This document shows, one piece after another, positions 4,532 through 60,990 of a DNA stretch of 64,000 nucleotides; the stretch's first letter is position 1, and each line of letters begins with the position of its first letter. The notes below the pieces were generated by a model. The model was not told where the DNA came from and ran no database searches. It worked only from the letters and a program-made list of their open reading frames with translations. Both the position numbers and the translations under genes were made by a program. Origin of the DNA: Phyllobates terribilis (lineage: Eukaryota). Location of the stretch: NCBI RefSeq assembly GCF_046119375.1, contig NW_027362762.1, positions 642,506,001 through 642,570,000 on the forward strand, given 5' to 3'.

Positions 4532-4939
4532 AAATAATATAGAGCTATGTTCAGATAAATGGAGTTTTGGTCTGTATGTGCAACCAATGGAAACTGAAAC
4601 CAATGTACTATTAAAGCACAAGGCAGTAATGAGTTAATAAACTCTCAGAATCCTGTAAGCACTTGATAATGCAGGACAGTCTTACTACATTGCATTTGCT
4701 CTGGTTGTCAAAATCTAGCAGTGCTATAAATTTCTAGAGGAGAGGCCAAGTAAATCTCGGAAAGAATGCAGCTGAATATTACAATCTGGCAGGTCATTTC
4801 AGTGACCTCTTGGATGCAAAACTTGCCGAGCTCGATCAAACAGTCTGGTAAATTAGCTGGTTGTTATAAAGAAAAATAGAATAAAATATTTTCAATTTGT
4901 AGACATAAAAGAAAAAAAAAAAAATTCAACAAAAAGTAA

Positions 4940-17500: not shown

Positions 17501-18286
17501 CACAGCTAGCAATTTGGCAATCTGCAAGTTTATTATTTGTGCCTGTGGGTGCGTGGCTGGGTATTTACTCTTTCTTTCCAAGCTCTCGGGCACAGACAAT
17601 TGGACGCTTTGCTGGGACAAATGAAGTGGATGTGGTTGATGTTTGTTGTGTGTGAGCAACCACAGTTTGTGGGCAGAAGGTATGAGCGCCTGCTTCCTGA
17701 ACAGCAGATTCTGAAGGACATAGCCCAGGCAACATGGCATTGGTTTGACCCGCAGATGCAGATTTGGTACCCTGGTGTTCCGCCCACCTACTGGGGTGCT
17801 TGGCTGCCATTTCGCATACTGGTGGTGCTTAGGTTGCCTCTGCCCTGGCCTCTGCTCAACTTGGTATGGCAGATGCTACAGACTACAATGTTTTTCTCTG
17901 AAGGACTTTCAGAAAAAAATTCCACACAGCAGCTGAACTCACCCCTTGCCCTGACTTGGTGCACAGTGGGGGGTGCTCTTGGGAACAGTTGACCCAGTTC
18001 TCACTCTGGGCAAACTACGACCCCTTGATGCCTGTGTTGGTGCTACATATCCATCTTCCTCTGTGTTGCTGTCATGGCTATGTGTGCCAACAGTCCAGGT
18101 CGGATCATTGGACTCATCATTGACCACCTCGTCTTATATCTCATCCTCCTTCCCAGTTGACATTGTAGGCTGACCTGATGACAACTGTGTGTCATCATCA
18201 TCATCAGCTTCAATCAGTGAATATGAATAGCGGTACCAGAGCGCCAATAACAGGGCAAAAATATAAAAAGGACTGATTTATTAATA

Positions 18287-18330
18287 CACACAACGCGTTT
18301 CGGTGGACACAGCCACCTTCATCAGGTGTG
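18287..18330 (-). ncRNA. Minimal type I hammerhead ribozyme in the PLE pLTR
   Basis: Minus strand reads CACAC-CUGAUGA-A-GGUGG(CUGUGU)CCACC-GAAA-CGCG-UU-GUGUG: stem I 5 bp, intact core, stem II 5 bp, palindromic stem III ACGCGU, triplet GUU. Confidence 0.85.
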
Positions 18331-18934
18331 ACAAGCAGCAAACAATTGATCCTTATATACATTTGACTAGGTATACAATTACTTAAAAGGGGCGGGGCCA
18401 GATGCAGAGTAATACCTCTATATTAACCCCTTGAGTTCATATATGCTCAATAGAGTAAAAAGGATTGTTATAAATTAATACCTAATGAAGCATATAGGGT
18501 TCTTATAAAAAGGATTCGCTGTATAAAAACTTGTGAATCCTATAATCATAATACTTAATAGGATATATTGTTATCTACCACCCTATATTTTATATTATAA
18601 AAAAAAAATAATAATAATTTTTACATACAACATAAAACAATGTATAAATATAAAGTTATAAAATTACAATCAGTTTCTATCATTATAATTAGGGAAAAGT
18701 AGACGAAGAAAGGAAAGAGAAAAAAAAAAAAAAAATTCCCCAAAAAAATTCCCAAAAAAGTTCCAAAATAAAAAAAAAAAAATTTTTTTAAATATTTTTT
18801 TTTTAATTTTTTCTCTTTTCTCCCTCTCCTCCCTCCTCCCTCCCTCTCTCTTTTCCCATCTTCCCTCCTTCTCTCTCTCCTCCCCCATATAAAAGATATA
18901 TATAATAAATTTGCTAAAATATAAAAACAATTAT

Positions 18935-21279: not shown

Positions 21280-22821
21280 ATCATCATCAGCTTCAACCTT
21301 TGGAGACAGTAAATGACGTTCCTTCAAGTGGCTTTCTTCTGGCAGTAGTTCCTCAAATACTTGAGCATCAACGCACGCCACCTCCTCTTGTCCCTCTTCA
21401 ATGCTGCACGGTGATAGGCCAGAGCCAACCAAAGGATACGTAGCAAACAGATCCTTGGAGTGGCCAAGCTTGGGGTCATATGTCTCCTGTGACTGATAAT
21501 GGCAGGAGGAAGGAGAACCAGCTGCAGGACTGGATGGGCCAGCCTTCTGTGTATCCACAATAGATTGTTTGGTCGTGGAAGATTTGTTGCTGCTTGACAA
21601 ATGCGTAGAGGCCTTGTCTGCTATGAACGAATGTATCTGCTCTCGCACTTGTGGCTCCCACACACGTTTATGTTCCAGACCGGGAAATTTTTACAGGAAC
21701 ATAGTGGATGCATCAAGCTTCTTCTGACCTGACACAGACTAAGTGCATTCTCGCGCACCACTGAAAACACCACGTCCACGTCCCTTAACAACAGGCTTTT
21801 TTGGCATTTTGGGTTTTGCTGACAGATTTTCAGATGTTTATGGCACAAGCCAAGCTAGCTGTCACAGCCAAAATAGTGGTTAAAATGTCCTGGTGCGTAC
21901 TTTGTAGCAGGCAGTAGGAAATGTTTCGACTACTGCTTTGTGTAGGGCATTCAATGATTTTTTAAGTGGACTAATATGGACAGAAGGCAGGCTGTCACAC
22001 CAAAAACAGTGGGGAAAATGGCCTGGTACGTGCTTTGTAGCAGGCAGTAGGAAATGTTTGGACTACTGCTTTGTGTAGGGCATTCAACGATTTTTTAAAG
22101 AACACAACCTAATACACTCCCTATCTAATACACAGTATCTCCATCCCTGTACTCTGACTTTGTTGTGTGTCTTCAGCTCTGAAAAGAGCTATTTTTTGGT
22201 GGTATTATGGAGCTAGTGAGCAGCTCCTTTAAACACAGAACTAGTATACACTGCAGGTAGCCCTTAAAAGGGCTTTTGTTTGATCAAGAGGCCTAAACAC
22301 TCTCCCTAGCAGCTCAACGATCTCTCCCTATGCTTGTAGAGCGCAGGCTCCGGATGCACAAAATGGTGGCGGCAGGGCTTAAATAGACCCTATGAGGCTC
22401 GGCGGCTAGCCAATCAGTAATGCCACAACCAAGATGTCTGCGGCATTACTGTGATTGGTTAAGAAGCCCAGCATGTTTAGTGGCTGCAAAGGAGGCGTCA
22501 AAAGTGCAGGACGGGACATCCGTATATATTGAGCCGAGTACACAAATACTTGCAAAATAACGAGTAGCCCGAATACCGTACTATCCTTACGAATAGCGAA
22601 TAGTGACGAATACACTCGCTCATCACTAGCTATAACCAGTGCCCTAGAAAGAAATAATGCCCCTTAGTGCTCTGTACAATAATAGTACATGCCAATAAAA
22701 TAGGAGACTTGGTAGTTTTATAACTATTAACCCATCGTCCTCCCTACCCCACCCAGTATATGTAAAATAAACACATAACTGCTTGCAACTTGGGTAACAT
22801 GGCCACAGTAGCCTTTATTAA

Positions 22822-30929: not shown

Positions 30930-32440
30930 CATACCAGGATTGGGGGATGAGGGGGCCACGCATACCAGGATTGGGGGGTGAGGGGGCCACACATACCAGG
31001 ATTGGGGGATGAGGGGGCCACGCATACCAGGATTGGGGGATGAGGGGGCCACGCATACCAGGATTGGGGGATGAGGGGGCCACGCATACCAGGATTGGGG
31101 GGTGAGGGGGCCACACATACCAGGATTGTGGGGTGAGGGGACCATGCATATCAGGATTGGGGGGTGAGGGGTACCACACATACCAGGATTGGGGGGTGAG
31201 GGGACCATGCATACCAGGATGAGGGGTACCACACATACCATTATTGGGGGATGAGGGGACCATGCATACCAGGATTGAGGGGTGAGGGGACCATGCATAC
31301 CAGGATTGCTGGGTGAGGGGTACCCTACATACCAGGATTGGTGGATGAGGGGACCATACATACCAGGATTGGGGTGAGGGGACCATGCATACCAGGATTG
31401 GGGGTGAGGGGACCATTCATACCAGGATTGGGGGGTGAGGGGACCATGCATACCAGGATTGGGGGCTGAAGGGACCATGCATACCAGGATTGGGGGGTGA
31501 GGGGTGCCATGCATACCAGAATAGGGATGAGGGGTACCATGCATACCAGGATAAGGATTAGGGGTGCCATGCATACTAGGATGAGGGATTGGGTGCCATG
31601 CATACCAGGTTTCTGGGATGAGGAGTCCATACATACCAGAATTGGGATCAGGGGTTCCATGCATACCAGGATGAGGGGTACCATACATACCAGAATAGGG
31701 ATGAGGGGTTCCATGCATACCAGGATGAGGGGTACCATACATACCAGGATAGGGATGAGGGGTACCATGTATACCAGGATTGGGGATGAGGAGCCCATGC
31801 ATACCAGGATAGGAATGAGGGGTGCCATGCATATCAGGGTTGGGGATGAGGGGTGCCATGCATACCAGGATTGGGGATGAAGGGTGCCATGCATACCAGG
31901 ATTGGGGATGAGGGAGCCATGCATACCAGGATTGGGGATGAGGGGTGCCATGCATTCCAGGATTGGGGATGATGGGTGCCATGCATACCAGGATTGGGGA
32001 TGAGGGATGCCATGCATACCAGGATTGGGGATGAGGGAGCCATGCTTACCAGGATTGGGGATGAGGGGTGCCATGCATACCAGGATTGGGGATGAGGGGT
32101 GCCATGCATACCAGGATTGGGGATGAGGGGTGCCATGCATACCAGGATTGGGGATGAGGGTGCCATGCATGCCAGGATTGGGGATGAGGGGTGCCATGCA
32201 TACCAGGATTGAGGATGAGGGAGCCATGCATGCCAGGATTGGGGATGAGGGGTGCCATGCATACCAGGATTGGAGATGAGGGGTGCCATGCATACCAGGA
32301 TCGGGGTTGAGGGGTGCCATGCATACCAGGATTGGGGGTGAGGAGTGCCATGCATGCCAGGATTGGGGGTGAGGGGTGCCATGCATACTAGGATAGGGAT
32401 GAGGGGTGCCATGCATACCAGGATAGGATGGTGGGGACAG
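30929..32440. repeat. ~31-bp G-rich minisatellite (CATACCAGGATTGGGGATGAGGGGTGCCATG), ~49 units
   Basis: Read directly. Two short copies also precede the CR1 (29945-29985), so the CR1 split the array. Confidence 0.95.
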
Positions 32441-34332: not shown

Positions 34333-34694
34333 CGCGTGCCCGCTGCAACGACGGAGTGTTATGCCCGTTGCCACCGGGTACTGTGCGCCTTTAATTAAAA
34401 ACTGTGTATGTTAAACTGTGGTGAAGATTGCCGCCATTGTTGGGCCGCCGAGCGAGAAGAAGGGAGTAACTGCGGGAAACTGAGAGGCGTATCTGCAAAA
34501 GCGCGCGAAGCCCCGGACACGCCCCACGCCTCGACGTCAAAACCAGGAAACGCCAGGTCCTGGAAGGAGCGTCGCTGAACGCTCTGACGTAGGACGCAAG
34601 CGACGCAAGGTCCTGAAGAAGACCGTCACCTGCGGAGCGGCGGTCTACCGAAAGAAAAAGAAGGTAGGCCATGGTTCGCTAGGGGGGCGCCAGA

Positions 34695-35756
34695 ATGTTC
34701 GAGGAACAGCACGACGCCGGAATACCGGTTAACGGCCCTGATGTACAACCCGCGCCCGACGCCGGGCAGGCCAAGGCGGCCGCTCCACCGGCAGCGCCTG
34801 TAACTCCTGTCATCCCCATAACTCTACCGTACATTCCTGGAGCAAAGTGGCTCCCCCAGTACAACGGCAAACCAGATACCCTGTCTGGATTCAAACGGAA
34901 GATATGCGGTATCTTGGACATGTACTCTATGACAGGCAAGTCGAGGGCTGCTGTTGTATTAGGACAACTGACTGGTGCTGGGGAATGGGAAGTGGAAACA
35001 TGGTCGGCCGCAGACCAGGAGTCAGTGTCCGCAATCTTTAAAAAGCTACAGACTGTTTTTGAGGATCATACTGAGGCAGACCTCCGGATGAAGTTCTACA
35101 ACTGTTCCCAACAGCCGGAGGACAATGTTTGGGACTATGCCTGGTGTCTACAAGGGGCCCTGCGGGCTCTGAAACAGGTTAGTCCGACCAGCATCGAAAA
35201 TGAAAACAAAATGCTGAAGGAACAGTTTGTCCGGGGACTGAGGTCTCCAGAGGAGAGCAGGACTGTGCGTTGGTGGTCATTAGATCATCCAGATGCTACC
35301 TTTGACAATCTTAAGGACATGGCTATAAAAGGACTGCAGCCCCTGGAAACAAATGCCATCCAATGTTACCAGGGTGGGGCTACCCCAGTGCCTGTTACAC
35401 TCACCTTTTCCCCAGTGGCTGCTGAAGCCAAGGTTCCAGCAACATCCCCTAGAGAGCTGGACAGTCTGCGCTCTGAAGTGCGCCAGTTGAGCAAAACCCT
35501 GACCACTGTGATGAGTGCTCTGCAGCTGCAGACGGAGCCCGAGGAAGGAGGGAAAATCCTGTTAGCCGATAACCCTGAGGATGTCCTCTGGGTGCGAAGG
35601 AGGAGGAGGACAACACTACCCTCTACGAGGATCAGTGACCAGCGCCGTCCACAGAAGGACCCTACCTGCTACCACTGCCGCAAGACCGGACACACCGCCC
35701 AGAATTGTCCTTTAAACGAGAAAACTCTGGGGCCAAGGGCCGACACCCAGGAGTAA
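34695..35756 (+). CDS. Gypsy Gag (353 aa, PNMA-like capsid region, CCHC zinc knuckle)
   Basis: Open ORF with F...Q...E...DYA..LQ..L and CYHCRKTGHTAQNC. Slippery site T TTA AAC at 35711-35717. Confidence 0.9.
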   Translation: MFEEQHDAGIPVNGPDVQPAPDAGQAKAAAPPAAPVTPVIPITLPYIPGAKWLPQYNGKPDTLSGFKRKICGILDMYSMTGKSRAAVVLGQLTGAGEWEVETWSAADQESVSAIFKKLQTVFEDHTEADLRMKFYNCSQQPEDNVWDYAWCLQGALRALKQVSPTSIENENKMLKEQFVRGLRSPEESRTVRWWSLDHPDATFDNLKDMAIKGLQPLETNAIQCYQGGATPVPVTLTFSPVAAEAKVPATSPRELDSLRSEVRQLSKTLTTVMSALQLQTEPEEGGKILLADNPEDVLWVRRRRRTTLPSTRISDQRRPQKDPTCYHCRKTGHTAQNCPLNEKTLGPRADTQE

Positions 35757-38700
35757 ATTCCCCAGGCCCATCAGACTGGTACAACAGGTTCATCGGAGGA
35801 AGACCTTTCCTGTCCATTGTGCTGGACAGCATCCTGACGCACGCTCTGCTGGACACAGGATCTCAGGTAACTGACGCGCCCCCTGGGCCTGTGCTGTGCA
35901 GGGGAACCCGGAACCGGGCCTGTTGTAGGATGCTGGGGGTTGTAGTCTCCGTGTGGCGGTGACCCGGTCCGTGCCCAGGGTGGTCAAACCAGTGGCAGTC
36001 TATTTGTATTGTAACAAGTGTCCGACTACGCCACCCGTGGATTGCGGTCAGTGGGGACCGCCGCTGCGCTGCAGACCGCTGAGGCTGATGTTGTTTGCGC
36101 AGCTGAGTATGGGATGACTCCCCACGGGAGAAGTATTGCCTCAGGGCAGCTAATGTGGATGATGGTGGTGATGGTGTGAGTGTCCCAGTACTGATGGTTC
36201 TGGTGCGGCGAGGAACCACAGAGACGTGCAGTTGCAGTTTTCAATGCTTTACTCACAGTTCTTTATCAGGTCACTTGTGCGCAGTTAGGACCGCCCGAGT
36301 CATGCTGCGTCCACCAGGTGAGGGACTCGGTCAACTCCCAGGCAATTCCGGAGTGTGGTTCAGAGCTCCCTTCTCTTTCCTTTCTCTGGCCGTCCCCACC
36401 AGTGACCCACCTTTGTCCAGCTTCCTCGGGCCTTCTGTTGGCGAAACCTCTCTCCGGTTTCCCTGACCCTATACGGTATGCCTTTCTGGTGGATGTAGTG
36501 AGGGGTCGCACCAAGATGTGGTAACAACCTCCGGTCTTTGGCTGAGGAATCTGTTGCCTCCACCAATTTGGGTTCCAGTACCCTGTTCTGCCAACCCTTC
36601 ACCCTGTATCTCCTCTGGGCATATGGGGTTCCTTCTGTCCTCGTGTCTCTGGGCCTTTCTCTGTGTTCCTTGCTTCCTTTCTCCTCTGTTCCAGTTCCTT
36701 TCCTACTTTCCTTTCTGTTCCTTCTCCTTTCTCTCTCTCTCAGGCTCCAGCCTCCTGACAAGGCCTGCCTGCGGAGCAGAGCCCATGCAGGGGCTCTGCT
36801 TCCTGTCTTCTCCTCTCACTCTTAGCTTCTTCTCTGCACTGCACTGACTACTGTCTTAAGATGGTGCCCACCTTATATACCTCCTTCTAACACCCGAGCC
36901 CAGGTGACTAGCAACCAATGGGCTCCTGCCTATGCCCAGAGACCCACCCCTATCTGCTCCTACACCACTGGGTTTTCCTTTCCCCGCCCCACTTCAGCCA
37001 GGGACAGAAGCTGTCGTGCCTGCACTTCTGTGGGAGCACCGTTGAGCTGTCCCTCGGAAATGGGGTGTGTGTGGTGCATGCAGCTAAACGAGTCCTGGTC
37101 CACACTCCATCCTTACCCGGGAGTGGAATATCACACCTCTGGTCTGAGGTGCAATACCCCTGTAGCAGCCGAGCCCTCGGGGTGCTACATAACCATAATG
37201 CCTGATGTCCTCTACAAGAGGTTCTGGTCCATGGACGACCTAAGTCCACCAGCTCTAAATCTTTCTGTTTATGCCTCAAATGGACTCCCCCTTAACTTAA
37301 TTGGGGTTAAGAATGTGACAGTAAAGGTGGGGAGAGTGGAGCTAAAGGACCAGGGACTAATTGTAGTAGAGACTAATCCTGATGATACCAATCCGTATAT
37401 GGTGTTAGGCACTAACATTGTTGGTAACTGTTTGGGAGAAGTTGTGTTCTTGCTCCAACAGATAGCTGACACTGCCAGACTAGGACAGAGGAGGGTGCTG
37501 CAGAAGGAGATCCGAGTCCTGATGTACCAACAGCAAGTAAGGTTAACAGATGGTGAAATCGGTAATGTGCGGGTGACGGACCCCATACCCATTGTGATCC
37601 CCCCAATGAGTGAAATGCTTATCTGGTGTAGAGCCGCCATAGGTCTTAGAGGACAGAGCTACCAAGCGGTAGTAGAACCCCTTTGCTCCGAGCACAGATC
37701 CACGCTCTTAACCGCCAGAGGAGTGGTAGATGTATGCAATGGGAGGGTGCCCGTCCGTCTTCTCAACTGGGGGGAATATGAGGTCAGATTGCCACGTTAT
37801 GCCACTGTTGCCAAATTACATGCTGTAAATAACAACTGGATTCACAAGGCGGAGTCATTAACCTCACCAGAAGAAGTGGAGGATGATGACCCTGCAACCC
37901 AGGTGGAGGATTGGTGTCAACAGCTCCATGTTGGGACAGACACCACTCCTGCCCATCAGAAACAGGGTGTACACCGGGTGGTTCAAGAATACGCGCAGGT
38001 GTTCAGTAAACATCCACTTGACTTCGGGAGGATTAAGGGGGTTCAACACCATATCCCCACAGGTGACCATCCACCCATCAAAGAACGTTACAGGCCTATA
38101 CCACCAGCACACTACCAGTAGGCTAAGGAAATGTTGCACGACATGAGAAAGGCGGGGGTAGTAAGGGATAGTTGTAGTCCCTGGGCAGCTCCCCTAGTGC
38201 TAGTTAGGAAAAAGGACGGGAGCATGAGAATGTGTGTAGATTACCGACAAGTAAATCGCATTACACATAAAGATGCATACCCTTTACCACACATAGAGGA
38301 GTCCCTAGCTGCCTTAAAGTCTGCAAATTACTTTTCCACCCTTGACCTCACTAGTGAGTACTGGCAAGTAGCTGTGGCTGAGGAGGATCGGGAGAAGACG
38401 GCCTTCACTATCCCGATGGGACTCTGCGAGTTCAACAGTATGCCGTTTGGACTCTGCAATGCCCCTGAAACGTTCCAGAGATTTATGGAGTGCTGCCTGG
38501 GACACCGCAACTTCGAGACTGTGTTACTATACCTGGATGACGTGATAGTGTACTTCAAAACGTATGAGGACCACTTGAAGCACCTGGCAGAGGTATTTGA
38601 GTCACTGTCCCGGTACAGGATGAAGTTGAAGCCCTCAAAGTGCCACCTGCTTAAGAGAAAGGTACAGTACCTGGGGCACATTGTCAGTCCGGAAGGGGTA

Positions 38701-41137
38701 GCACGAGACCCGGAGAGGGTCACCGCCATCCAGAAGTGGCTGGAGCCGAAGAACCTCAAGGAGGTGTGTCAGTTCTTGGGACTAGTAGGATACTACCGGA
38801 GGTTTGTAAAAGACTACACCAAGAAAGCTGCTCCTCTGCAAGACCTCCTTTTAGGGCAGTCCCCCAAAGGCAGAAATCCCCCATTCCACTGGGGTAAGGA
38901 GCAAGCCGAGTTGTTTCAGGAGATGAAGGAGATCCTGACAGGTGATGAGATCCTAGCCTACCCTGACTACAGCCAACCGTTCCTGCTGTATACTGATGCC
39001 AGCAACGAAGGACTGGGAGCTGTCCTAAGTCAGAAGCAAAATGGCCAAGAGAAAGTGATCGCATATGCAAGCAGGAAGCTCCGCCCGAACGAGAGGAACC
39101 CAGAGAACTATAGCAGCTTCAAGTTGGAGTTCCTGGCCCTGGTCTGGGCCATCACTGAAAGGTTCAAGCACTATCTAGCCTCCAGTAAGTTCACTGCCTT
39201 CACTGATAACAACCCCTTGACCCATCTTGAAAAAGCTAAGCTAGGAGCACTGGAACAACGATGGATGGCTCGGCTGTCAAATTATCAATTCACAATTAAA
39301 TACCGGGCGGGCCGCAAGAACGCCAACGCCGATGCCCTGTCTAGGATGCCTCACCAGTCAGACACAGAAGAAGAAGTGGATGACCTGAAAGAGATTGAGC
39401 TACCTGCCTTTCACCGGAATGTGATGATCCATGAGCAACGAGCCTCCAGGAGGCAGCGTGGAAAGACGTTAAAACCCCTGCCTCACCACAGCTGGAAAGA
39501 GACCCAGGACAGTGACCCAGTTGTCATCCGCATCAAGGAGCTGATAACCCAAGAAGGTTCCTCCCTGGAAAAAGAAGCGTCTCTGCAAGCAAAGCAGCTG
39601 TGGAACGAGAGAAGCCGGCTGTTTATCTACTGTGAGAAGCTGTGCCGGAGGTACGTCAATCCAAAAACCCATGAGATGGTATGGCAGATAGTGGTCCCCA
39701 AGACGGACATCCAAATGGTGTTGGAGGCTTACCACGATCAGGCGGGGCACTTCGGCTGGAAAAAGCTAGAGACCCTGCTGAAGTGTCGATTCTACTGGGT
39801 AGGAATGCGCAGCTCCATTGAGCGATGGTGCCGGGACTGTGGACCCTGTGGACTTAGAAGAAAAGACTACAGCAGCCAGAAGGCACCCCTGCAACCCATC
39901 AAGATAACTCGACCCCTGGAGATCGTGACCCTGGACCATGTCAAGCTGTCCCTCGGCAGGTCAGGGTACTCTTATGCTCTGACCATGGTGGATCACTACT
40001 CACGTTTCCTTGTGGTCGCCCCGTCAAAGACCTGATGGCAGAAACAGCAGCAAAGACGTTCCAAGCGTATTTCTGTAGACCCCATGGTTATCCTGAGCAG
40101 GAGCTGACGGATCAAGGCCCGGCCTTTGAGGCTGAGTTGTTCAAGGAGTTCTGCCATCTATACGGGTGTAAGAAGATAAGAACTACACCGTACCACCCAC
40201 AAACCAATGGTCTCTGTGAGAAGATGAATAACATCATCATCGACCTGCTAAAGACCATACCACTTGAGGAGAGAAACCAATGGCCAGACCTACTACCTGA
40301 CCTAGTAGATCTGTACAATCACATACCAGTAAGTTCCACCAACTGTACTCCAGCATATCTCATGCGGGCAAGGCCAGGAAAGCTGCCCATGGACCTGGAG
40401 CTTGGTGTTGTAGAACCAGAAGCGGATGTGACCACTGAGGACTGGGACACGGCCAGACAGGAGCAGTACAGAAGAGTACAAGCCTGTGTTGAAGACAGTC
40501 TCACTCAGGTGAGGGATAAGCAGGAAGCTCAATACAACAGAGGTGCCCAAGCAGAGCCTTTCACACCTGGTGAAGTAGTACTAAAAAGGAAAAGAAGGAA
40601 CAACAAACTTGATGACCAGTGGGAGAGAGAACCCTACACTGTGTTGAATTCAAGATTTGATAATAAGAAGACCTGCATAATTAGTAAAGACGGAGGAAGG
40701 ACGACTGCAACAGTATCCAGGGATCACCTAAAGTTGTGTCCAGACCTGCTAAAGCCTCAAGAAGAGGTGCCTCTCACTGTACCGGAGGAGCCTAAAGAAG
40801 CAGTAATACACACTGACTTAGGAGATTTCCCGGCAGATTGGCCCCAACTAGGAGGAGCAGTAATCATCCCTGTAATTACCGTCTACCCACAGCAAGAAGA
40901 GCCTGTAAGTGCTGAAGAGGAGCCAGCTCAAGAAGAATCCCCGGATGAAGGATCCCCGGTAGGAGAGGAGCAAGAAGGCCCAGCCAATGATGAACTTGTC
41001 AGTCCTGTAGAGAGGTCAATGCAGCCTTGTAGCCCCTCCACACCTAGTACTGACACATTGGGAGGTAGAGCATCTACTAGTGCCTCACGCATCCTAGTTT
41101 TGCACAGATCAACGCATACCACGCGAGGTCAACCCCC
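35711..41137 (+). pseudogene. Gypsy Pol (protease-RT-RNase H-integrase), disrupted
   Basis: LLDTGSQVT|IM split by a solo LTR. Stop at 38119-38121. RT SPWAAPLVLVRKKDGSMRMCVDYR and YLDD. RH LYTDAS..YSSFKLEFLA. INT H-H-C-C, DHVKL, TDQGPAFE, QTNGLCE. Frameshift at ~40025. Confidence 0.93.
35872..37189 (-). mobile_element. Solo LTR (1318 bp) inserted in the Gypsy protease gene
   Basis: TG...CA ends and 4-bp TSD TAAC (35868-35871, 37190-37193). Removing it restores DTGSQVTIMPDVLYKRFW. TATATAA on the minus strand at ~36875 gives orientation. Confidence 0.9.
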
Positions 41138-42764
41138 TGGACAGAGACAACATTTTTCTAATTTTGGTTTTAGACATTACCACAATGAATTTTAAACAAA
41201 ACAATTCAGATGCAGTTGAAGTTCAGACTTTTAGCTTTCATTTGAGGGTATACACGTTAAAATTGGATGAAGGGTTTAGGAGTTTCAGCTCCTTAACATG
41301 TGCCACCCTGTTTTTAAAGGGACCAAAAGTAATTGGACAAATTAAATAATTGTAAATAAAATGTTCATTTCTAGTACTTGGTTGAAAACCCTTTGTTGGC
41401 AATGACTGCCTGAAGTCTTGAACTCATGGACATCACCAGATGCTGTGTTTCCTCCTTTTTGATGCTCTGCCAGGCCTTCACTGCGGTGGTTTTCAGATGC
41501 TATTTGTTTGTGGGCCTTTCTGTCTGAAGTTTACTCTTTAACAAGTGAAATGCATGCTCAATTGGGTTGAGATCAGGTGACTGACTTGGCCATTCAAGAA
41601 TATTCCACTTCTTTGCTTTAATAAACTCCTGGGTTGCTTTGGCTTTATGTTTTGGGTCATTGTCCATCTGTAGTATGAAACGACGACCAATCAGTTTGGC
41701 TGCATTTGGCTGGATCTGAGCACACAGTATGGCTCTGAATACATCAGAATTCATTTGGCTGCTTCTGTCCTGGGTCATATTATCAATAAACACTAGTGAT
41801 CCATGCCACTGGCAGCCATGCATTCCCAAGCCATCACACTGCCTCCGCCGTGTTTTACAGATGACGTGGTATGCTTTGGATCATGAGCTGTACCACGCCT
41901 TCGCCATACTTTTCTCTTTCCATCATTCTGGTAGAGGTTGATCTTGGTTTCATCTGTCCAAAGAATGTTCTTCCAGAACTGTGCTGGCTTTTTTAGATGT
42001 TTTTTAGCAAAGTCCAGTCTAGCCTTTTTAGTCTTGATGCTTATGAGTGGCTTGCACCGTGCAGTGAACCCTCTGTATTTACTTTCATACAGTCTTCTCT
42101 TTATGGTAGATTTGGATATTGATACGCCTACCTCCTGGAGAGTGTTGTTCACTTGGTTGGCTGTTGTGAAGGGATTTCTCTTCACCATGGAGATTATTCT
42201 GCAATCATCCACCACTGTTGTCTTCCGTGGGCGCCCAGGTCTTTTTGCATTGATGAGTTCACCAGTGATTTCTTTCTTTCTCAGGATGTACCAAACTGTA
42301 GATTTTGCCACTCCTAATATTGTAGCAATTTCTCGGATGGGTTTTTTCTGTTTTTGCAGCTTAAGGATGGCTTGTTTCACCTGCATGGAGAGCTACTTTG
42401 ACCGCATGTTTACTTCACAGTAAAACCTTCCAAATGCAAGCACCACACCTCAAATCAACTCCAGGCCTTTTATCTGGTTAATTGAGAATGACATAACGAA
42501 GGGATTGCCCACACCTGTCCATGAAATAGCCTTAGAGTCAATTGTCTAATTACTTTTGGTCCCTTTAAAAACAGGGTGGCGCATGTTAAGGAGCTGAAAC
42601 TCCTAAACCCTTCATCCAATTTTAATGTGGATACCCTCAAATGAAAGCTGAAAGTCTGAACTTCAACTGCATCTGAATTGTTTTGTTTAAAATTCATTGT
42701 GGTGATGTCTAGAACCAAAATTAGAAAAATGTTGTCTCTGTCCAAATATATATGGACCTAACTG
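41138..42764 (-). mobile_element. Tc1-like transposon (DD34E) with ~200-bp TIRs; outer ~20 bp of the left TIR missing
   Basis: 41138-~41345 is the reverse complement of ~42540-42743. Right end ...GGACCTAACTG followed by TA. Confidence 0.93.
41371..42407 (-). pseudogene. Tc1 transposase with two premature stops and one frameshift
   Basis: MRSK*LSMQVKQAILKL..GRPRKTT..ILWTDETKINL..TVKH-like SVKHGGGSVMAW; [21 protein letters not shown] (34 residues between D and E); ends FSTKY*. Confidence 0.92.
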
Positions 42765-49471: not shown

Positions 49472-49961
49472 GTGAGGACGTGATGTACAATACAAAGTTA
49501 TATTGTGAGAAAAACGAGAACCACCGAATGATAGGTCCAATAGGGCAAAGGATACATATAAGACTTTTATTATTGTAACGGCAACACGTGGCACTACATG
49601 CAAAAGGAAAAACCGCATAGCAGTGACCAAACACAAACAGAAATCATATAATGGAAGTTACATAGTGTACTGCATTAACACATATAAATAGTAGTACAAC
49701 AGGTATGCATATCAGACAAATGTTAAAACTCCATTTGACATATGGTGAATACCACCTAGGAGACCAGGAACAGAGACAGACATCAAGCCATCTTATAAAT
49801 ATAAAGATACCATGTACATCATCATTGTGACCATATCCATATCCATATCAAGTGTATCTAGACGGTCAATATTAAATAAATAGGTGACAGCATATAGTCA
49901 GTAAAAGGGAAAATAGTATACCTGTGTCTACAGCAGCTTATGTGGATGGCACATGCGGCAA

Positions 49962-50004
49962 ACCCCGACGCGCGTTTCGGACAGCAAGTCCTTCGTCAGG
50001 GGGT
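49962..50004 (-). ncRNA. Type I hammerhead ribozyme (left arm)
   Basis: ACCCC-CUGACGA-A-GGAC(UUGCU)GUCC-GAAA-CGCGC-GUC-GGGGU. Intact core and GUC cleavage triplet. Confidence 0.9.
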
Positions 50005-51700
50005 ACCGTCCAACTGAACCACCACGTATATAAAGGTAAGTGTGACCAATGGAATCCGGGGCATACATAATTAATGTGACCTCAGGGCGCAATCGCGTGG
50101 AAACACGTGCACCCAGTTGTTATGCTGATGAATGTAGTAAGAGGCGTCCGTAGTGTGCGCATGCGCAGCCCGGAGGAACCGGAAGCCGCGAGCGCCGCGT
50201 CATGCATCAGCTGACGTCGGGTCAAAAGACCCGAGTCACCTGACACATAGAGACGCACGCATCACAGCTCCCCGGAACACGGACTGAGCATGCGCGCCAC
50301 GCCAACCAGGTCCCCATAGTAACCGGATACACACAGTAACCGGCACGCTTCACATAGAGATTATCGTATTGTATACTCAGCGAATTCAGAATGGAGGGGG
50401 AACATGAGACCATTTACATCGCAGTCATGGGGTATAGAGAATCCATAAAGAAAAAGGAAGGATAATAAGAATACACGATAGAAATTAAACAAAAGGTAAG
50501 TAAAACAGCACGAAAGAAGGAAATGTGAGGATGAAGAATGTGAGGGGCATGTGCCTAAATATATTACGGTGCAAACCAATGCACATAGGTGAACATGGAG
50601 AACATATCAGTGAAAATAATGTCCCTGTATGTACATACAGATGGACGTGAGATTAGAAAATATAATTCAATGGATAAAGATATGAATGTGACTGTGAAAA
50701 GAAAATGAAAATAAATTGAATAAATAAGAAAAAGAGAATAAAAAAGAAAAGAGGAAGAAAAGAAAGTGAAACACTCATGGGGCAAAAGTGATAGTGCAAA
50801 GTAGGTGAAAGTGAAACCAAAACAGGTGAATATATGCTGAAGCTAAATAGTGACGATGTGAAAGAAAAGAAAATAGAGAGGGGGGGAGGGGGGGGAGGGG
50901 GGGGGAAAGGGGGAAGAGGGGGAATGTGAAGCAAAAAGAAAAAGGAATAGGAGTGAAGATGGACAAGGAAAGAGTGAGGGGGGAGAGAAACCAAAAGAAA
51001 AGAGAAGAAGAACAAACACGAAAAATGCCTGATCTAATCCTGCTGCGAAGTGCCATGCTATTGCAGGATAAAAAACATCTACAGAGCCGTCAATACCATC
51101 TATCATCATATACAGATGGTATGGATAATCAATGATATACACATCAGTATTAGATGTGTCAGTAGACAAGGAACCACACACCACAGGCGAATAATACGTG
51201 ATACATACAACATGAAAAAACAAGATACATCATAGGAATAAATATACAGTAGTATCAATATATAAATATAGTACATAAATATGTATAATATAATAAATAA
51301 ATACATATCAAATGTACAGATCATAAAAATTGGAAAGTGTTATACATCTATACACACTGGTGGTATGTCATATTTTGCAAGAAATAATACATGTACCGGA
51401 CGACATAGATGAGTGAATGTGATGTAATTCCGGGGAGCTGTGATGCGTGCGTCTCTATGTGTCAGGTGACTCGGGTCTTTTGACCCGACGTCAGCTGATG
51501 CATGACGTGGCGCTCGCGGCTTCCGGTTCCTCCGGGCTGCGCATGCGCACACTACGAACGCCTCTTACTACATTCATCAGCATAACAACTGGGTGCACGT
51601 GTTTCCACGCGATTGCGCCCTGAGGTCACATTAATTATGTATGCCCCGGATTCCATTGGTCACACTTACCTTTATATACGTGGTGGTTCAGTTGGACGGT

Positions 51701-51743
51701 ACCCCCTGACGAAGGACTTGCTGTCCGAAACGCGCGTCGGGGT
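51701..51743 (+). ncRNA. Type I hammerhead ribozyme (right arm); predicted cleavage after C51738
   Basis: Identical inverted copy of 49962-50004. Confidence 0.9.
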
Positions 51744-52507
51744 TTGCCGCATGTGCCATCCACATAAGCTGCTGTAGACACAGGTATACTATTTTCCCTT
51801 TTACTGACTATATGCTGTCACCTATTTATTTAATATTGACCGTCTAGATACACTTGATATGGATATGGATATGGTCACAATGATGATGTACATGGTATCT
51901 TTATATTTATAAGATGGCTTGATGTCTGTCTCTGTTCCTGGTCTCCTAGGTGGTATTCACCATATGTCAAATGGAGTTTTAACATTTGTCTGATATGCAT
52001 ACCTGTTGTACTACTATTTATATGTGTTAATGCAGTACACTATGTAACTTCCATTATATGATTTCTGTTTGTGTTTGGTCACTGCTATGCGGTTTTTCCT
52101 TTTGCATGTAGTGCCACGTGTTGCCGTTACAATAATAAAAGTCTTATATGTATCCTTTGCCCTATTGGACCTATCATTCGGTGGTTCTCGTTTTTCTTAT
52201 GTTTGTTACCGAATGGTCTGCCATTTCCTATTGGTCCATACATTAAAGCACTCGATATAGGTTAGACCAGGCCAACCTACAGATGATAGTATGGTCTGTG
52301 TCCCGTGCTTCTTAGTTCAGTGTTTTTTGTCTTCAAAGTTATATTGTGGTACCGTGTTAGGCAGAAAAATCGATGTAAATACTTTTATGCCAAAAATGAC
52401 TGAAGTATTCTCGGAGTGATACCTTTATTGGCTAACCAGAAAAAAATATATATATGGTGAGGACGTAGGAGAGATTTTCTTCTGATGACTCTTCAATAAA
52501 GGCTATA

Positions 52508-54116
52508 CAGTCGTGTTCATCGTTCTTGGCACCCATGAAGTGTAAGTACATATTGTGGAATATCTCCTGAAAAAAATTAATCAAGTGAAACAGTTTTTTT
52601 GTATAGAGCACTCGTGTTAAATGCAAAAGAGCAAATGATAAACAATAATTTAAAACAGAAAACATTGGGAGGGAAAAATAGAAAAACCTAACGCTTGCTG
52701 TGACACTGGTATTGGCACCCTTTACATTAATTTAGTATAGAAACACATTTTGACTTGCCTGTTTTAAATCACAAAAGATATTCACCTGTGATTAATTGTC
52801 GTGCCCATGTGACATGAATTAGCCAATGAATGATAACTTCAGTGTTTTAAAAAGCCACATGGAAGGCCATGTTCCTTTGTCACAATGGTGAATACAAAGA
52901 AGCTGTTTGAGCACATCAGAACTGCTGTTATTAGCAAACACAAGACTTCCAAGGATATAAGGCCATCTCCAAAGACGTTGGTATCCCAGTTTCAACAGTG
53001 CGCAATATTATTAAGAAGTTTGCCAAGCATGGAACCGTCAAGGACCTATCTGGTCGTGGGGGAAAGAGGAAAATTGACAAAAGATGTATTCGAAGTTTGG
53101 TGTGAATGGTGGAAAAAACACCACATCAAACATCCAAAGATCTGAAGGCCAACCTGTAACAGTCTTGGGTCATGTTTTCAACAAGTACCATACACCACAC
53201 ACTAAACCAAGCAGAGCTTTATGGGCGGAGGCCAAGGCAGAAACCATTTCTGAAGAAAAGACATAAAAAGGAAAAACTGATCTTTTCTAAAGAGTACCTT
53301 TACAAACCACAATCCTTCTGGGAAAATGTTCTGTGGACAGATGAAACGAAAATAGAGCTTTTTTCAAATGCAAAGCAGCAATTTGTTTACAGACAGCGCA
53401 ATGAAGCTTATAAGGAAAAAAACACCTTACGAACAGTTAAGCATGATAGAGGATCCATAATGCTGTGGGGTCGCTTTGCTGCATCTGGTACTGGAGGCCT
53501 TGACTGTGCCACAAGAATCATGAAATTGAGAATTATGAAGAGATTTTAGAGCGAAATGTCCTACCCAGTGTAAGAAAATTTGGTTTGAGTCGAAGATCAT
53601 GGGTCCTTCAGCAAGACAATGACCCACATCCAAAAGTACACAGGAATGGTTGAAAAAAAATGGACTGTTTTAAAATGGCCAGCAATGAGTCCTGACCTCA
53701 ATCCCATTGAAAATCTTTGGGGTGAGCTGAAATGTGCCTTTTTGGAAAAAGATCCCTGCAAACATTCAAGAGCTTGAAAAAACTGCAAAGTAAGAGTGGG
53801 AGAAAATTCCAGCTGAGAAGTGCAAGTAGCTGATAAATGGCTACAAGAAATGTTTGGAGGCTGTCAGCAATGCCAAAGGGTGTACAACCAAATATTAATT
53901 AGGGATGGCTTTATTACTGCACATGCTGTTTATTCTGTTTTTTTCTTTGAAATTGCAACATGGAAGTTGAAAAACAATGTTTTATTGTTGTATTCCTTTG
54001 GACCACTAATTAAAAAATCCTGAGCATATAACTTTGGTACATTTCCATTTATTTCTGAAGATATGGTACAGTTTATGAAAAAAATGAAGGGGTGCCAATA
54101 ATGATGAGCAGCAGTG
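52508..54116 (+). mobile_element. Decayed full-length Tc1-like transposon nested in the older Tc1
   Basis: TA TSD (52506-52507, 54117-54118). TIRs CAGTCGTGTTCATCGTTCTTGGCACCC / GGGTGCCAATAATGATGAGCAGCAGTG. Transposase fragments [58 protein letters not shown]. Confidence 0.9.
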
Positions 54117-55700: not shown

Positions 55701-55862
55701 ATTTTTCTCCCTCCTTAAATGTGTGTGCTTTTTCCCCACAGCATTACTACAATTTATAGATTCCAAAATGCTATAGGGGCCCATACACCTGACCATGCTG
55801 GTGGGGACTTATAAGACTTTAGTTATGCCATTGCTATACAATACAACAGATCTCCTTTGTCT

Positions 55863-58800
55863 AATGCAACTGGTGATCACTGTATTACCTGTACACTGTA
55901 TACAGAGCTCCTGGGTATAATGTTACTGATGATCCCTGTATTACCTGTACACTGTATACAGAGCTCCTGTGTATAATGTCACTGGTGATCACTGTATTAC
56001 CTGTACACTGTATACAGAGCTCCTGTGTATAATGTCACTGGTGATCACTGTATTACCTGTACACTGTACACAGAGCTCCTGTGTATAATGTCACTGGTGA
56101 TCACTGTATTACCTGTACACTGTATACAGAGCTCCTGTGTATAATGTTACTAATGATCCCTGTATTACCTGTACACTGTGCTTCTGTGTGTAATGTCACT
56201 GGTGAGCATTATATTACCTGTACACTGACACTATATACAGAGCTCCTGTGTATAATGTCACTGATGATCCTTGTACTACCTGTACACTGTATACAGAGCT
56301 CCTGTGTATAATGTTACTGATGATCCCTGTATTACCTGTACACTGTATACAGAGCTCCTGTGTGTAATGTCACTGGTGATCCCTGTATTACCTGTACACT
56401 GTATACAGAGCTGCTGTGTATAATGTTACTGGTGATCACTGTATTACCTGTACACTGTATACAGAGCTCCTGTGTATAATGTCACTGGTGATCACTGTAT
56501 TACCTGTACACTGTACACAGAGCTCCTGTGTATAATGTCACTGGTGATCACTGTATTACCTGTACACTGTATACAGAGCTCCTGTGTATAATGTCACTGG
56601 TGATCACTGTATTACCTGTAAACTGACACTATATACAGAGCTCCTGTGTATAATGTCACTGATGATCCCTGTATTAGCTGTACACTGTATACAGAGCTCC
56701 TGTGTATAATGTTACTGATGATCCCTGTATTACCTGTACAATGTATACAGAGCTCCTGTGTATAATGTTACTGATGATCCCTGTATTACCTGTACATTGT
56801 ATACAGAGCTCCTGTGTGTAATGGCACTGGTGATCCCTGTATTACCTGTACACTGTATACAGAGCTCCTGTGTATAATGTCACTGATGATCCATGTATTA
56901 CCTGTACACTGTATACAGAGCTCCTGTGTATAATGTTACTGATGATCCCTGTATTACCTGTACACCGTACACAGAGCTCCTGTGTATAATGTTACTGATG
57001 ATCCCTGTATTACCTGTACTCTGTATACAGAGCTCCTGTGTATAATGTTACTGATGGTCCCTGTATTACCTGTACACTGTATACAGAGCTCCTGTGTATA
57101 ATGTCACTGATGATCCCTGTATTACCTGTACACTATATACAGAGCTCCTGTGTGTAATGTTACTGGTGATCCCTGTATTACCTGTACACTGAATCTACAT
57201 ACATAGCTCCTCTGTATAATGTCACTGGTGATCACTGTATTACCTGTACACTGTATACAGAGCTCCTGTGTATAATGTTACTGATGATCCCTGTATTAAC
57301 TGTACACTATATACAGAGCTCCTGTGTGTAATGTTACTGATGATCCCTGTATTACCTGTACACTGTACACAGAGCTCCTGTGTATAATGTTACTGATGAT
57401 CCCTGTATTACCTGTACACTGTATACAGACCTCCTGTGTGTAATGTCACTGATGATCCCTGTATTACCTGTACACTGTATACAGAGCTCCTGTGTATAAT
57501 GTTACTGATGATCCCTGTATTACCTGTACACTGTATACAGAGCTCCTGTGTATAATGTCACTGGTGATCACTGTATTACCTGTACACTGTATACAGAGCT
57601 CCTGTGTATAATGTCACTGATGATCACTGTATTACCTGTACATTGTACACAGAGCTCCTGTGTATAATGTCACTGGTGATCACTGTATTACCTGTACACT
57701 GTATACAGAGCTCCTGTGTATAATGTTACTAATGATCCCAGTATTACCTGTAAACTGTGCTCCTGTGTGTAATGTCACTGGTGAGCATTATATTACCTGT
57801 ACACTGACACTATATACAGAGCTCCTGTGTATAATGTCACTGATGATCCCTGTACACTGTATACAGAGCTCCTGTGTATAATGTTACTGATGATCCCTGT
57901 ATTACCCGTACACTGTATACAGAGCTCCTGTGTGTAATGTCACTGGTGATCCCTGAATTACCTGTACACTGTATACAGAGCTCCTGTGTATAATGTCAAT
58001 GGTGATCACTGTATTACCTGTACACTGTATACAGAGCTCCTGTGTATAATGTCACTGGTGATCACTGTATTACCTGTACACTGTACACAGAGCTCCTGTG
58101 TATAATGTCACTGGTGATCACTGTATTACCTGTACACTGTATACAGAGCTCCTGTGTATAATGTCACTGATGATCACTGTATTACCTGTACACTGACACT
58201 ATATACAGAGCTCCTGTGTATAATGTCACTGATGATCCCTGTATTACCTGTACACTGTATGCAGAGCTCCTGTGTATAATGTTACTGATGATCCCTGTAT
58301 TACCAGTACACTGTATACAGAGCTCCTGTGTATAATGTTACTGATGATCCCTGTATTACCTGTACACTGTACACAGAGCTCCTGTGTATAATGTTGCTGA
58401 TGATCCCTGTATTACCTGTACACTGTATACAGAGCTCCTGTGTATAATTTTACTGATGATCCCTGTATTACCTGTACACTGTATACAGAGCTCCTGTGTG
58501 TAATGTCACTGGTTATCCCTGTATTACCTGTACACTGTATACAGAGCTCCTGTGTATAATGTCACTGATGATCCCTGTATTACCTGTACACTGTATACAG
58601 AGCTCCTGTGTATAATGTTACTGATGATCCCTGTATTACCTGTACACTTTATACAGAGCTCCTGTGTACAATGTTACTGATGATCCCTGTATTACCTGTA
58701 CAATGTATACAGAGCTCCTGTGTGTAATGTTACTGATGATCCCTCTATTACCTGTACACTATATACAGAGCTCCTGTGTGTAATGTTACTGGTGATCCCT

Positions 58801-58936
58801 GTATTACCTGTACACTGAATCTATATACATAGCTCCTCTGTATAATGTCACTGGTGATCACTGTATTACCTGTACACTGTATACAGAGCTCCTGTGTATA
58901 ATGTTACTGATGATCCCTGTATTACCTGTACACTAT
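55863..58936. repeat. 56-bp satellite/minisatellite (TGTATAATGTCACTGGTGATCACTGTATTACCTGTACACTGTATACAGAGCTCCTG), ~54 units, with a ~1.6-kb higher-order duplication
   Basis: GAGCTC recurs every 56 nt (55961, 56017...). Rare variant units recur at +1579 (ORFs 56081/57660) and ~+1630. Interrupted on the right by the LTR element. Confidence 0.97.
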
Positions 58937-60026
58937 TGTAGCGCTGGCGTCCCTGCCCTCTGCTAGGCAGGGACGCTGCTCCCCTCACCGCTCTGCTCCG
59001 TGCCCGGCGTCCTCTCCCCGCTCTGCTGTCAGCGCGCGCTCCTTCCCGGCGTCCTCCTCCCGCTCTGCTCTCAGCGCGCGCTCCTTCCCGGCCCCTGTGC
59101 TTAGGGCGCGCGCGCGCGCGCTCCCCTCCTCTTAAAGGGGCCGCGCGCGCCGTCCTAAGGAGTCCCCGGCCAATGGCCGGAGGACTTCATCATATATAAG
59201 GCACCTCCTCCAAAATGGAGGTGCCCGAGCAATGTTGTTTGCACCTGTGTCTCACCTGTGCTTCAGCCCTCAGGTCCCGTTGCCAGTTTCCTGTCAGTTA
59301 CCTGCCAGTTTCCTGCCAGTTACCTGCCTGATTCCTGCCTGAATACTTGTTACCTGTCTGCCAGTCTGGGGTCCGACGGTCTGCCTTACTACTCCTGTCA
59401 GTCTGTCTAAAGGACCAGCCTGCCCGCTCACCTGGGAGCGCACATCAGCTACCTGCCTACTTTCCTGAGGTCCGACGGTCTGCCTTACAACTCCGGTCAG
59501 TCTGTCTATGGACCAGCTTGCCCGCTCACCTGGGAGCGCTTCTCCGTTACCTGCCTGCTTGCCAGCCCGGAGGCTCCGCTGTCACGTGCTGTGACCATCA
59601 GCTACTTCAGACTCTTGTCCGCTCACCTGGGAGCGCTTCTCCGTTACCTGCCTGCTTGCCAGCCCGGAGGCTCCGTTGTCACGTGCTGTGACCATCAGCT
59701 ACTTCAGAGACTCTTGCCCGCTCACCTGGCAGCGCTTCTCCGTTACCTGCCTGCTTGCCAGCCCGGAGGTTCCGCCGTCACGTGCCGTGACCACCTGTTA
59801 TTCCAGAGACTCTCGCTTGCTCACCTGGGAGCACACATCTACCATCTGCCTGCTAGCCTACCCGGAGGCTCTGCCATCACAGGTCGTACCTACCCTTTAC
59901 CCAGAGACTGCCCTGATCACTTGCCGTATCTCCCTGTCCGTTCATCCAGAGACTGCCACCCGCTCCCTTACAAGGGCTGCCCCCTTGTATAGTAGCTCAG
60001 AGGTTCCGCCTCCCAGACCCGTTACA
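58937..60026 (+). repeat. 5' LTR (1090 bp)
   Basis: TGTAGCG...CGTTACA ends. TATATAA at 59193-59199. About five ~98-bp tandem units at 59427-59900. Confidence 0.9.
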
Positions 60027-60028
60027 GT

Positions 60029-60038
60029 TTGCTCGGGC
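60029..60038 (+). promoter_or_regulatory. Self-priming PBS
   Basis: TTGCTCGGGC is the exact reverse complement of GCCCGAGCAA (59223-59232), which starts 30 nt after the TATA box. No TGG tRNA-type PBS is present. Confidence 0.8.
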
Positions 60039-60039
60039 C

Positions 60040-60990
60040 ATGGAACCCGGTGGTACCCAAGCTCCCTCGCTCTCGGACCTCTGTCTTGAACTGTCCCGTC
60101 AGAGGTCCCAACAGGAGGCCATCCTGGGTCACCTGCGGAATGTTAATACTCGCCTGAACACTCTGTCTGCTCCACCAACAACCTCCGCCAGTGCCATATC
60201 TTGCAATCCGGCAGCTCCGCTGCCCACTAATACCATGGTATCCTACCCCGGACCCCGGCTTTCTGCACCTCCTCGCTTCGGAGGCGACTCCGTCCAGGCT
60301 CGGGGCTTCTTAAATCAGTGCACCCTGCATTTTGAACTTTTGTCCTACCAGTTTAACTCCGACCGGGCCAAAATTGCCTTCATCATGTCCCATCTCACCG
60401 GGGAGGCCCTGGCCTGGCTAAATCCTCTATGGGAGAGAGGAGACCCCCTGGTGTCCAACTTGCCTGCTTTTCTCACGGCTTTCCGGAAAGTCTTCGACGA
60501 ACCCGGACGGAAGACCTCATCTGCATCATCGTTGCTACGCCTCCGTCAGGGGAGTCTCACCGTGGGCCAATATGCCATACGGTTCCGTACCCTTGCCTCG
60601 GAGCTGACCTGGGATAACGACGCTCTGGTTTCCGTCTTCTGGGAGGGTCTGTCCGGCCGTATTAAAGATGAACTTGCCGGTCGGGACACTCCTACCACTC
60701 TCGATGACTTAATAACTCTTGCCACCCGGATTGACCTACGGTTCCAGGAGCGTGCCAGAGAGGTCACCCGTGAGAGGAGGTTACCACGTCTAGCTCCTAC
60801 TTTTCAGAAACCCGTCACTCCTTCTGTCTCTAACCAGGTACACCCTCCTGAGCCTATGCAGGTCGACCAGACCAAGATGGTCAAGACCCGTCAGGACTTA
60901 CGCCGTGCCGAGGGGACCTGCTTCTACTGTGGCAGTAAGGAGCACCAGATCCGTGCCTGCCCGGAAAGGTCGGGAAACGCCTGTGTCTAG
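60040..60990 (+). CDS. Gag (316 aa; PEG10/RTL-like capsid, CCHC knuckle)
   Basis: PPRFGGD...RGFLNQC..F...AKIAFIMSHLTGEALAW..LRQGSLTVGQYA..F..LA..W..ALVSVFWEGL, and CFYCGSKEHQIRAC. Confidence 0.95.
   Translation: MEPGGTQAPSLSDLCLELSRQRSQQEAILGHLRNVNTRLNTLSAPPTTSASAISCNPAAPLPTNTMVSYPGPRLSAPPRFGGDSVQARGFLNQCTLHFELLSYQFNSDRAKIAFIMSHLTGEALAWLNPLWERGDPLVSNLPAFLTAFRKVFDEPGRKTSSASSLLRLRQGSLTVGQYAIRFRTLASELTWDNDALVSVFWEGLSGRIKDELAGRDTPTTLDDLITLATRIDLRFQERAREVTRERRLPRLAPTFQKPVTPSVSNQVHPPEPMQVDQTKMVKTRQDLRRAEGTCFYCGSKEHQIRACPERSGNACV

Follow-up and report, generated by a model that had tools for sequence, protein, structure and literature searches.

The window analysed here, a stretch of 64,000 nt from the Phyllobates terribilis assembly GCF_046119375.1 (contig NW_027362762.1, positions 642,506,001 to 642,570,000, forward strand), contains two long inverted arms, each with a hammerhead ribozyme motif. 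The question raised by this locus is whether such paired arms form a unit that moves as a whole, as the original prediction of a non-autonomous, retrozyme-like element implied, or whether they are the product of a single insertion event. The arms are 770 nt each, 768/770 identical without an indel and 1,150 nt apart; the two substitutions first noticed between them are the only ones (51508/50197 and 51557/50148). The insertion and its surroundings are arranged as follows.

49472-49481 and 52457-52466: 10-bp direct repeat GTGAGGACGT flanking the host fragment.
49482-49507, minus strand: host sequence, 3' end of an older high-copy repeat, other copies of which have a minimal hammerhead; in paralogues it runs on directly into the sequence from 52349.
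49493-49507, plus strand: left target-site duplication CAAAGTTATATTGTG, exact 15-bp repeat.
49508-50277, minus strand: left arm, comprising 273 nt upstream of the predicted start and the pLTR, ending at site A (49508), as in sister copies.
50278-51427, minus strand: 'spacer', 3' UTR of a coding family, contiguous with the left arm and 5'-truncated at the central junction; 98% identical to G000:C13 and 93% to C85.
51428-52197, plus strand: right arm, comprising by sequence comparison 273 nt upstream of the predicted start and the pLTR up to site A.
52198-52333, plus strand: 136-nt tail, absent from the left arm; by comparison with the family, its end is site B.
52334-52348, plus strand: right target-site duplication CAAAGTTATATTGTG, exact 15-bp direct repeat; paralogues carry the empty site.
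52349-52456, minus strand: rest of the 134-bp host fragment, by comparison with paralogues.

The insertion proper spans 49508-52333 (2,826 bp). The bounds initially proposed, 49482-52452, included the older 134-bp host fragment and overlooked the 136-nt tail of the right arm, and the direct repeat was given as 14 bp instead of 15 bp; the first base or two of the latter are ambiguous with the element end. As the target is present only once in 9/9 host-repeat paralogues read, some with a substitution, the repeat represents a true target duplication; with a strict target pattern, in which few substitutions were allowed, 24 of 39 paralogues pass. The central junction (51427/51428) is blunt, without microhomology. 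With one private substitution per arm (0.13% per arm) and an amphibian substitution rate of about 1-2e-9 per site per year, the insertion would be roughly a million years old or less. The skewed composition of the spacer (67% purine on the plus strand) and the lack of coding capacity were both correctly recognized at the outset: the spacer holds stop-to-stop frames of 104-128 aa, two of which (125 and 127 aa) were scanned without a Pfam match, and the protein of the family described below matches the insertion over residues 1-23 only, in the tail. The window copy is without an ORF and cannot move by itself.

The host repeat, for which 40 of 1,300 candidates were scored, is a very abundant short element (L092-L100, L331-L360) with the minimal hammerhead CTGAAGA...GAAAGCTT, and is also found in head-to-head pairs. 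Its fragment in the window starts about 1 nt after its own predicted cut, which the 39 other copies do not, and three other copies are broken at a TA run by an apparent DNA-transposon end. Further repeats lie elsewhere in the window. Another PLE of this type, not related to the first, lies at 18150-21690 (minus strand); its two frames share 30-31% identity with the family protein and are divided near 20190, and a hammerhead follows downstream at 18325. At 34683-41195 (plus strand) there is a Ty3/Gypsy LTR retrotransposon, whose matches to gag, RT, RNase H and integrase are distributed across several frames, and at 59917-60990 (plus strand) a Ty3-type gag frame. A Tc1-type transposon at 41138-42744 is bounded by inverted ends 203 bp long at 96.6%, and a fragment of its transposase lies at 41793-42392 (minus strand); another Tc1 transposase fragment is located just right of the insertion (53160-53549, plus strand). 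Long minisatellites with 28-, 31- and 56-bp units are found at 9879-13352, 30930-32424 and 55846-58934, respectively.

To place the insertion, the 10.6-Gb genome was searched with one arm and with the spacer, and both queries gave the same loci, of which 52 were counted after removal of six that duplicate another locus including its flanks. Longer loci contain a 5,529-nt unit, tandem in places, with a 1,056-aa open frame; ORF sequence is present in 14/52 loci. On this unit, the minus-strand arm plus spacer cover positions ~3681-5526 (3' UTR and pLTR), the spacer, which falls beyond the ORF end at 3234, taking up ~3681-4776, and the plus-strand arm covers 4777-5529, followed by the tail. The 1,056-aa frames in L047, L048 and L049 match RVT_1 with E-values of 5e-7 to 5e-6 and have DKG and YIDD motifs. 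Protein P0001 shows a CX2CxxC linker (CRPCGKCVAC) and a VIY...YVG motif of the GIY-YIG type; the Pfam match to GIY-YIG, with an E-value of 0.0043 below the cut-off, was obtained for one of two copies and went undetected in the other. Atlas neighbours at 0.97-0.98 carry RVT_1, HTH_animal and GIY-YIG, the latter in 23-77% of members where listed, and searches of PDB and phage records with the family protein gave no match. Judged by these motifs and matches, the parent is an endonuclease-positive (EN+) Penelope-like element (PLE) with a single ORF encoding a PLE-type reverse transcriptase and a weak but consistent C-terminal GIY-YIG domain. We call it Neptune-type on account of the CX2CxxC linker and because, among clades with such a linker, it is Neptune that has been reported from vertebrates; a zinc-finger-like CX2-5CxxC linker before the endonuclease is described for Neptune, and for Nematis as well, in the text of PMC8557442. 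Arrays of three or four 5.5-kb units, located at G000:C1:859.86 Mb, C1:1059.46 Mb and C2:57.87 Mb, the last with a hammerhead in each pLTR, are candidate source loci for read-through RNA.

Around the predicted RNA start, the following features are found on the right arm, with the mirrored hammerhead on the left.

49961-50005, minus strand: type I hammerhead of the left arm, mirroring that of the right; predicted cut after 49967 (Rfam RF00163, 23.7 bits).
51655-51678, plus strand: ATTGG (51655-51659) and TATATA (51673-51678), a likely Pol II promoter.
51700-51744, plus strand: type I hammerhead of the right arm, aligned over the whole Rfam model; predicted cut after C51738, stem III palindrome ACGCGCGT.
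51701, plus strand: putative transcription start A51701, at offset -5 from core residue C51706, placed from the 5' ends of genomic copies.

The CUGACGA...GAAA...GUC core claimed for each arm is present, as are the promoter-like boxes, and both hammerheads are of the type I found in pLTRs, stem III being palindromic, as stated for PLEs at the outset. The match to Hammerhead_1 covers the whole model and stays below the gathering score (23.7 bits versus 34), with an E-value of 0.27 on the whole window and 0.0021 on 501 nt; further Rfam matches in the window are sub-threshold hairpins. Helices I and II have 4 bp each, helix III is palindromic, and two core variants account for 42 of the 55 cores read. 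For the monomer, an alternative hairpin (-18.7 kcal/mol) is preferred over the active fold (-9.5 kcal/mol), so that activity would need a dimer formed via the ACGCGCGT palindrome, or help from a protein.

The 5' ends of genomic copies were located relative to C51706. In a first set, 30 arms begin at -10 to +10, none at +11 to +30, five at +31 to +34 and 21 at +35 to +440. The start cluster is sharpest at -5 (A51701) in both sets studied, 28 nt after the start of the TATA box, which is the usual Pol II spacing, and likely marks the RNA start. The second cluster brackets the predicted cut, the first base after which is +33. It was spotted post hoc and contains 5/26 downstream ends (uniform-null P ~4e-6, 4e-4 after correction), with some ambiguity: L159 and L222 overlap the duplication by 1-2 nt, C12 may start anywhere from +31 to +33, and L221 starts at +34. 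A prospective set was therefore drawn from sister subfamilies with a pattern starting at +33, giving 102 matches, of which 79 were examined and collapsed to 61 by upstream flank. Here, four copies start exactly at +33 and one within +11 to +32 (at +16; P ~5e-5 for 4/5), about 22 lie at the start cluster, and the rest extend upstream. These ends suggest that the hammerhead self-cleaves in vivo.

For this step only, stalling of the reverse transcriptase or a junction bias at the hairpin G-run could instead have produced the pile-up at +33, an explanation that we consider unlikely but deserving of weight. In its best fold, the monomer forms a GC-rich hairpin of 8 bp, with these Gs in the 3' strand, and the RNA-seq data described in the text of PMC11167929 for the anole element had no reads at the cut. 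Stalling at the base of the hairpin would, however, be expected to give ends at +37 or later rather than after all four Gs had been copied, only 2/26 ends fall within +37 to +56, and the four prospective ends are exact, each preceded by a non-family base. The host repeat, taken as a second test, has a near-cut start in 1/40 copies only, namely the window fragment. A contig from run X9, putatively an RNA run, starts at 51739, right behind the predicted cut, and was dismissed as support for cleavage: it carries the alleles of L159 at 12/12 sites, and L159 itself starts there, so the contig is not independent of that locus, and contigs cannot reveal RNA ends. Both arms of the window copy extend past the cut and the promoter, which implies uncut read-through RNA as their template.

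The other ends of the arms lie at two sites, in a region with a predicted intron and a predicted hairpin.

51784-52333, plus strand: 5' part of a predicted 5' UTR intron (570 nt in full copies) containing sites A and B; donor AG/GTA in 67/68 contexts.
52173-52217, plus strand: predicted hairpin of 12 bp, the loop of which contains site A (52197); weak regional z-score of -1.88, same fold in the six loci tested.

Site A corresponds to 52197 and 49508 in the window, and site B lies ~136 nt further 3'. Both outer ends could be resolved in 34 of 37 two-armed insertions, and all 34 have one A and one B end. The same holds for 11/11 insertions of sister subfamilies, in which some flanking repeats are inflated by satellites, giving 45/45 overall. 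Altogether, the combination of an inverted 5'-truncated copy, a tail at one end and a target duplication is found in the window and 44 other insertions. In 33 of the 34, the flanking direct repeats measure 13-17 bp, one of these including a mismatch; the remaining insertion has a repeat of at least 9 bp. Eleven of the 34 were first found with a tail-containing query, which biases toward B at one end and not toward A at the other. Not included are the six flank-sharing duplicate loci, the second C5e copy, the two-armed loci C3, L221 and C2d (each with an unresolved end) and C2e +399, which is split by a later insertion. Single-armed copies number 15, with seven ending at A and eight at B. The tail measures ~130-140 nt across the family, one copy having an internal deletion, and the stem of the site-A hairpin shows no covariation across the six loci tested. 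Separately, C85, C35, C56 and C60, as well as C373 with C5:427-428 Mb and several unplaced contigs, are single insertions into satellite DNA multiplied together with their flanks; these are amplification or assembly duplicates.

Branch point, pyrimidine tract and acceptor (CAG/G, ~28 nt past site B) of the predicted intron are kept across subfamilies. If the intron is real, only unspliced RNA can serve as template, since A and B lie inside it. In agreement with this model, no join of exons 1 and 2 was seen at the ORF start in any of 30 loci, most of which keep the intron, the three without it being truncated or having unrelated upstream sequence. One copy, L379:1500, starts within ~4 nt of the predicted splice acceptor, a single case.

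By hand count, the A arm exceeds the tail-bearing arm by >10 nt in the 5' direction in 17/34 insertions, including the window copy; the tail-bearing arm reaches further in 11, the arms are about equal in five, and one case is complex. In the 17, each arm has sequence absent from the other, which cannot result from one folded-back cDNA but can from two primings, one on each of the nicked strands. In two insertions, L162 and L080 (G000:C5:91.24 Mb), the B arm consists of the tail alone, stopping at or before site A, and these look as if the B-primed cDNA had met the A-primed cDNA on the same RNA. Paired arms are 98.6-100% alike in 33/33 comparisons, with subfamilies differing by up to ~15%; yet the mate arm is strictly the closest relative in only 16 (12 ties, five not), so that an origin of both arms from one RNA molecule does not follow.

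On this basis, we consider it very probable that the insertion consists of two 5'-truncated copies of a coding Neptune-type PLE, placed head to head within a 15-bp target duplication, likely by both nicked target strands priming reverse transcription at two fixed sites of the RNA. Comparison of the loci establishes, at the level of sequence, the family identity, both outer ends, the duplication and the locus-private junction. In the proposed course of events, the GIY-YIG endonuclease would nick both target strands ~13-15 nt apart; of the resulting 3' ends, one would prime at site A and the second 136 nt further 3', at site B, on unspliced RNA; the A-primed cDNA would have run for 1,920 nt and the B-primed one for 906 nt, on read-through RNA with an uncut hammerhead; and the two cDNA ends would have been joined bluntly. 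The 770-bp arm would be the stretch that both cDNAs cover. In the parent, a hammerhead located at the transcript start likely removes the first 37 nt in some molecules, probably acting as a dimer or with protein help.

An alternative discussed in the text of PMC3846280 is that the inversion arises from a single priming, after which the product folds back or primes itself, antisense RNA being a possible template, and the endonuclease cuts the second end. This proposal rests on palindromes at junctions, and near-equal arms with small overlaps do occur in a few copies of the frog family (C5b, C2f, C1b, L212, L216). The blunt junction of the window copy speaks against it, however, as do the 5' ends, which fit sense-strand landmarks (TATA+28 and the cut), and the longer A arm in the window and 16 other insertions, where neither arm copies the other; we judge it improbable.

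That the locus belongs to a non-autonomous, retrozyme-like family moving as a 2.8-kb hairpin unit appears more doubtful still. The window copy is indeed young, has no coding capacity and lies within a target duplication, the original description as a young PLE derivative holds to that extent, and a link of non-LTR retrozymes to PLEs has been proposed in the text of 10.64898/2026.07.22.740005. Its relatives, however, are coding PLEs together with 5'-truncated or inverted copies, an outcome named at the outset as refuting the idea, arm and spacer lengths vary freely, and the 770/1,150 junction recurs in 0/51 other loci, making it a one-off rather than the mark of a mobile family of the same structure. 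The repeated structures that were found (C85/C35/C56/C60, the C373/C5 pairs and the C5e pair) share flanks, and are thus segmental or assembly duplicates. Tandem short hammerhead units were not found, and all 69 matches of a whole-genome pattern search fall in already known loci. As the two pLTR promoters face outward, transcripts from them would lack the complementary arm, and the predicted dsRNA hairpin would need read-through from the host; in such RNA, synthesis of the antisense arm comes first, and the hammerhead would likely be masked by it. The same requirement would hold for every inverted copy of the family.

Least credible of all is an assembly artefact: inverted PLE structures are known to trouble assemblies (PMC8557442), and among the contigs listed from four runs, which show the family in other samples, none bridges the central junction or has the T alleles of the window at 51508 and 51977, but each arm has its private substitution, the duplication agrees with the empty site, the ends obey the A/B rule, and one contig of run X7 equals 52305-52383 without difference across the right junction, albeit with 29-30 letters on the left side against a threshold of 31. 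A DIRS-type element is ruled out by the target duplication and by the parent frame, which encodes RT plus GIY-YIG, and a retrozyme tandem by the arms being head to head, with no head-to-tail array of short units at the locus.

The head-to-head layout itself is already published. Insertion units of EN+ PLEs (Penelope/Poseidon, Neptune, Nematis, Naiad) are described as having a 5'-truncated copy in inverted orientation and, at one of the ends, a tail of 30-40 bp (PMC8557442 fig. 2; Pen2a_Av in PMC3846280). The frog family shares with the units in these two accounts the inverted 5'-truncated copy at the 5' end, flanking inverted repeats, the one-end tail, target duplication, a pLTR hammerhead with TATA box, and partial tandems. 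It differs in its tail of ~136 nt, against the typical 30-40 nt (Arkhipova 2006 may describe longer ones), in the exceptionless pairing of one A with one B end (45/45), where the text of these papers has 'often' or 'optionally', and in the window copy being entirely without ORF.

The closest biochemical parallel is PAc, the Poseidon element of Anolis carolinensis, which according to the text of PMC11167929 nicks and extends both strands in vitro from two start sites bounding the tail, without strand preference; cleavage by the hammerhead was unnecessary for insertion. Both systems have two internal start sites that bound the tail, an uncut RNA template and a start site in a stem-loop. PAc belongs to a different clade, however; its hammerhead overlaps the ORF start and its sites lie 111-118 nt into the ORF, whereas the frog family has its hammerhead where the RNA is predicted to start, and its sites fall within a predicted intron. 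Furthermore, frog genomic copies begin at the cut, at which the anole RNA-seq described there had no reads ending.

With metazoan PLE and retrozyme type I hammerheads, as presented in the text of PMC4209133, the frog motif has in common the CUGAnGA/GAAA/GUC core, a short palindromic helix III suited to dimer cleavage and the position in the pLTR; unlike those, it is canonical rather than minimal, and highly conserved within the family. Like the animal non-LTR retrozymes in the text of 10.64898/2026.07.22.740005, the window copy is non-coding and pLTR-related with a type I hammerhead, but it arose once, as a head-to-head truncation from a coding element, as opposed to head-to-tail tandems of short units.

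Taken together, these observations lead us to favour, by a modest degree, a joint reading in which every two-armed insertion would comprise an A end on one target strand and a B end ~136 nt off on the other. Both sites would be located inside an intron of the 5' UTR, and intron retention in PLE copies would thereby be explained; cleavage by the hammerhead would take place in vivo and strip off the first 37 nt with the cap; and RNA so cut, ORF-bearing molecules among it (the cut-site copies C12 and L397 extend into the ORF), would still serve as template. Counting against a strict A/B rule is the anole assay (text of PMC11167929), where both start sites were used alike on both strands. Neither genomic PLE copies starting at the hammerhead cut nor an obligatory A/B pairing were found reported in the main texts covered; fig. 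S2 of PMC11167929 and the supplements of 10.64898/2026.07.22.740005 may bear on both points. Within the same texts, no paper was found that links twin priming with Penelope-like elements, and that of PMC8782182 is without PLE data.

The locus itself is ordinary, and its element joins a known kind of PLE insertion. The family, in contrast, bears modestly on two open points of PLE biology, the cutting of the hammerhead in cells and the origin of inverted ends with a one-sided tail. On the former, for which in vivo evidence in pLTRs is stated as absent in the text of PMC4209133, independent insertions start at the predicted cut in the discovery set as well as in a test set chosen beforehand, which suggests that the pLTR hammerhead does cut in cells. 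On the latter, the exceptionless A/B rule, the long and easily scored tail and the young open frames of 1,056 aa would make a direct in vitro test possible.
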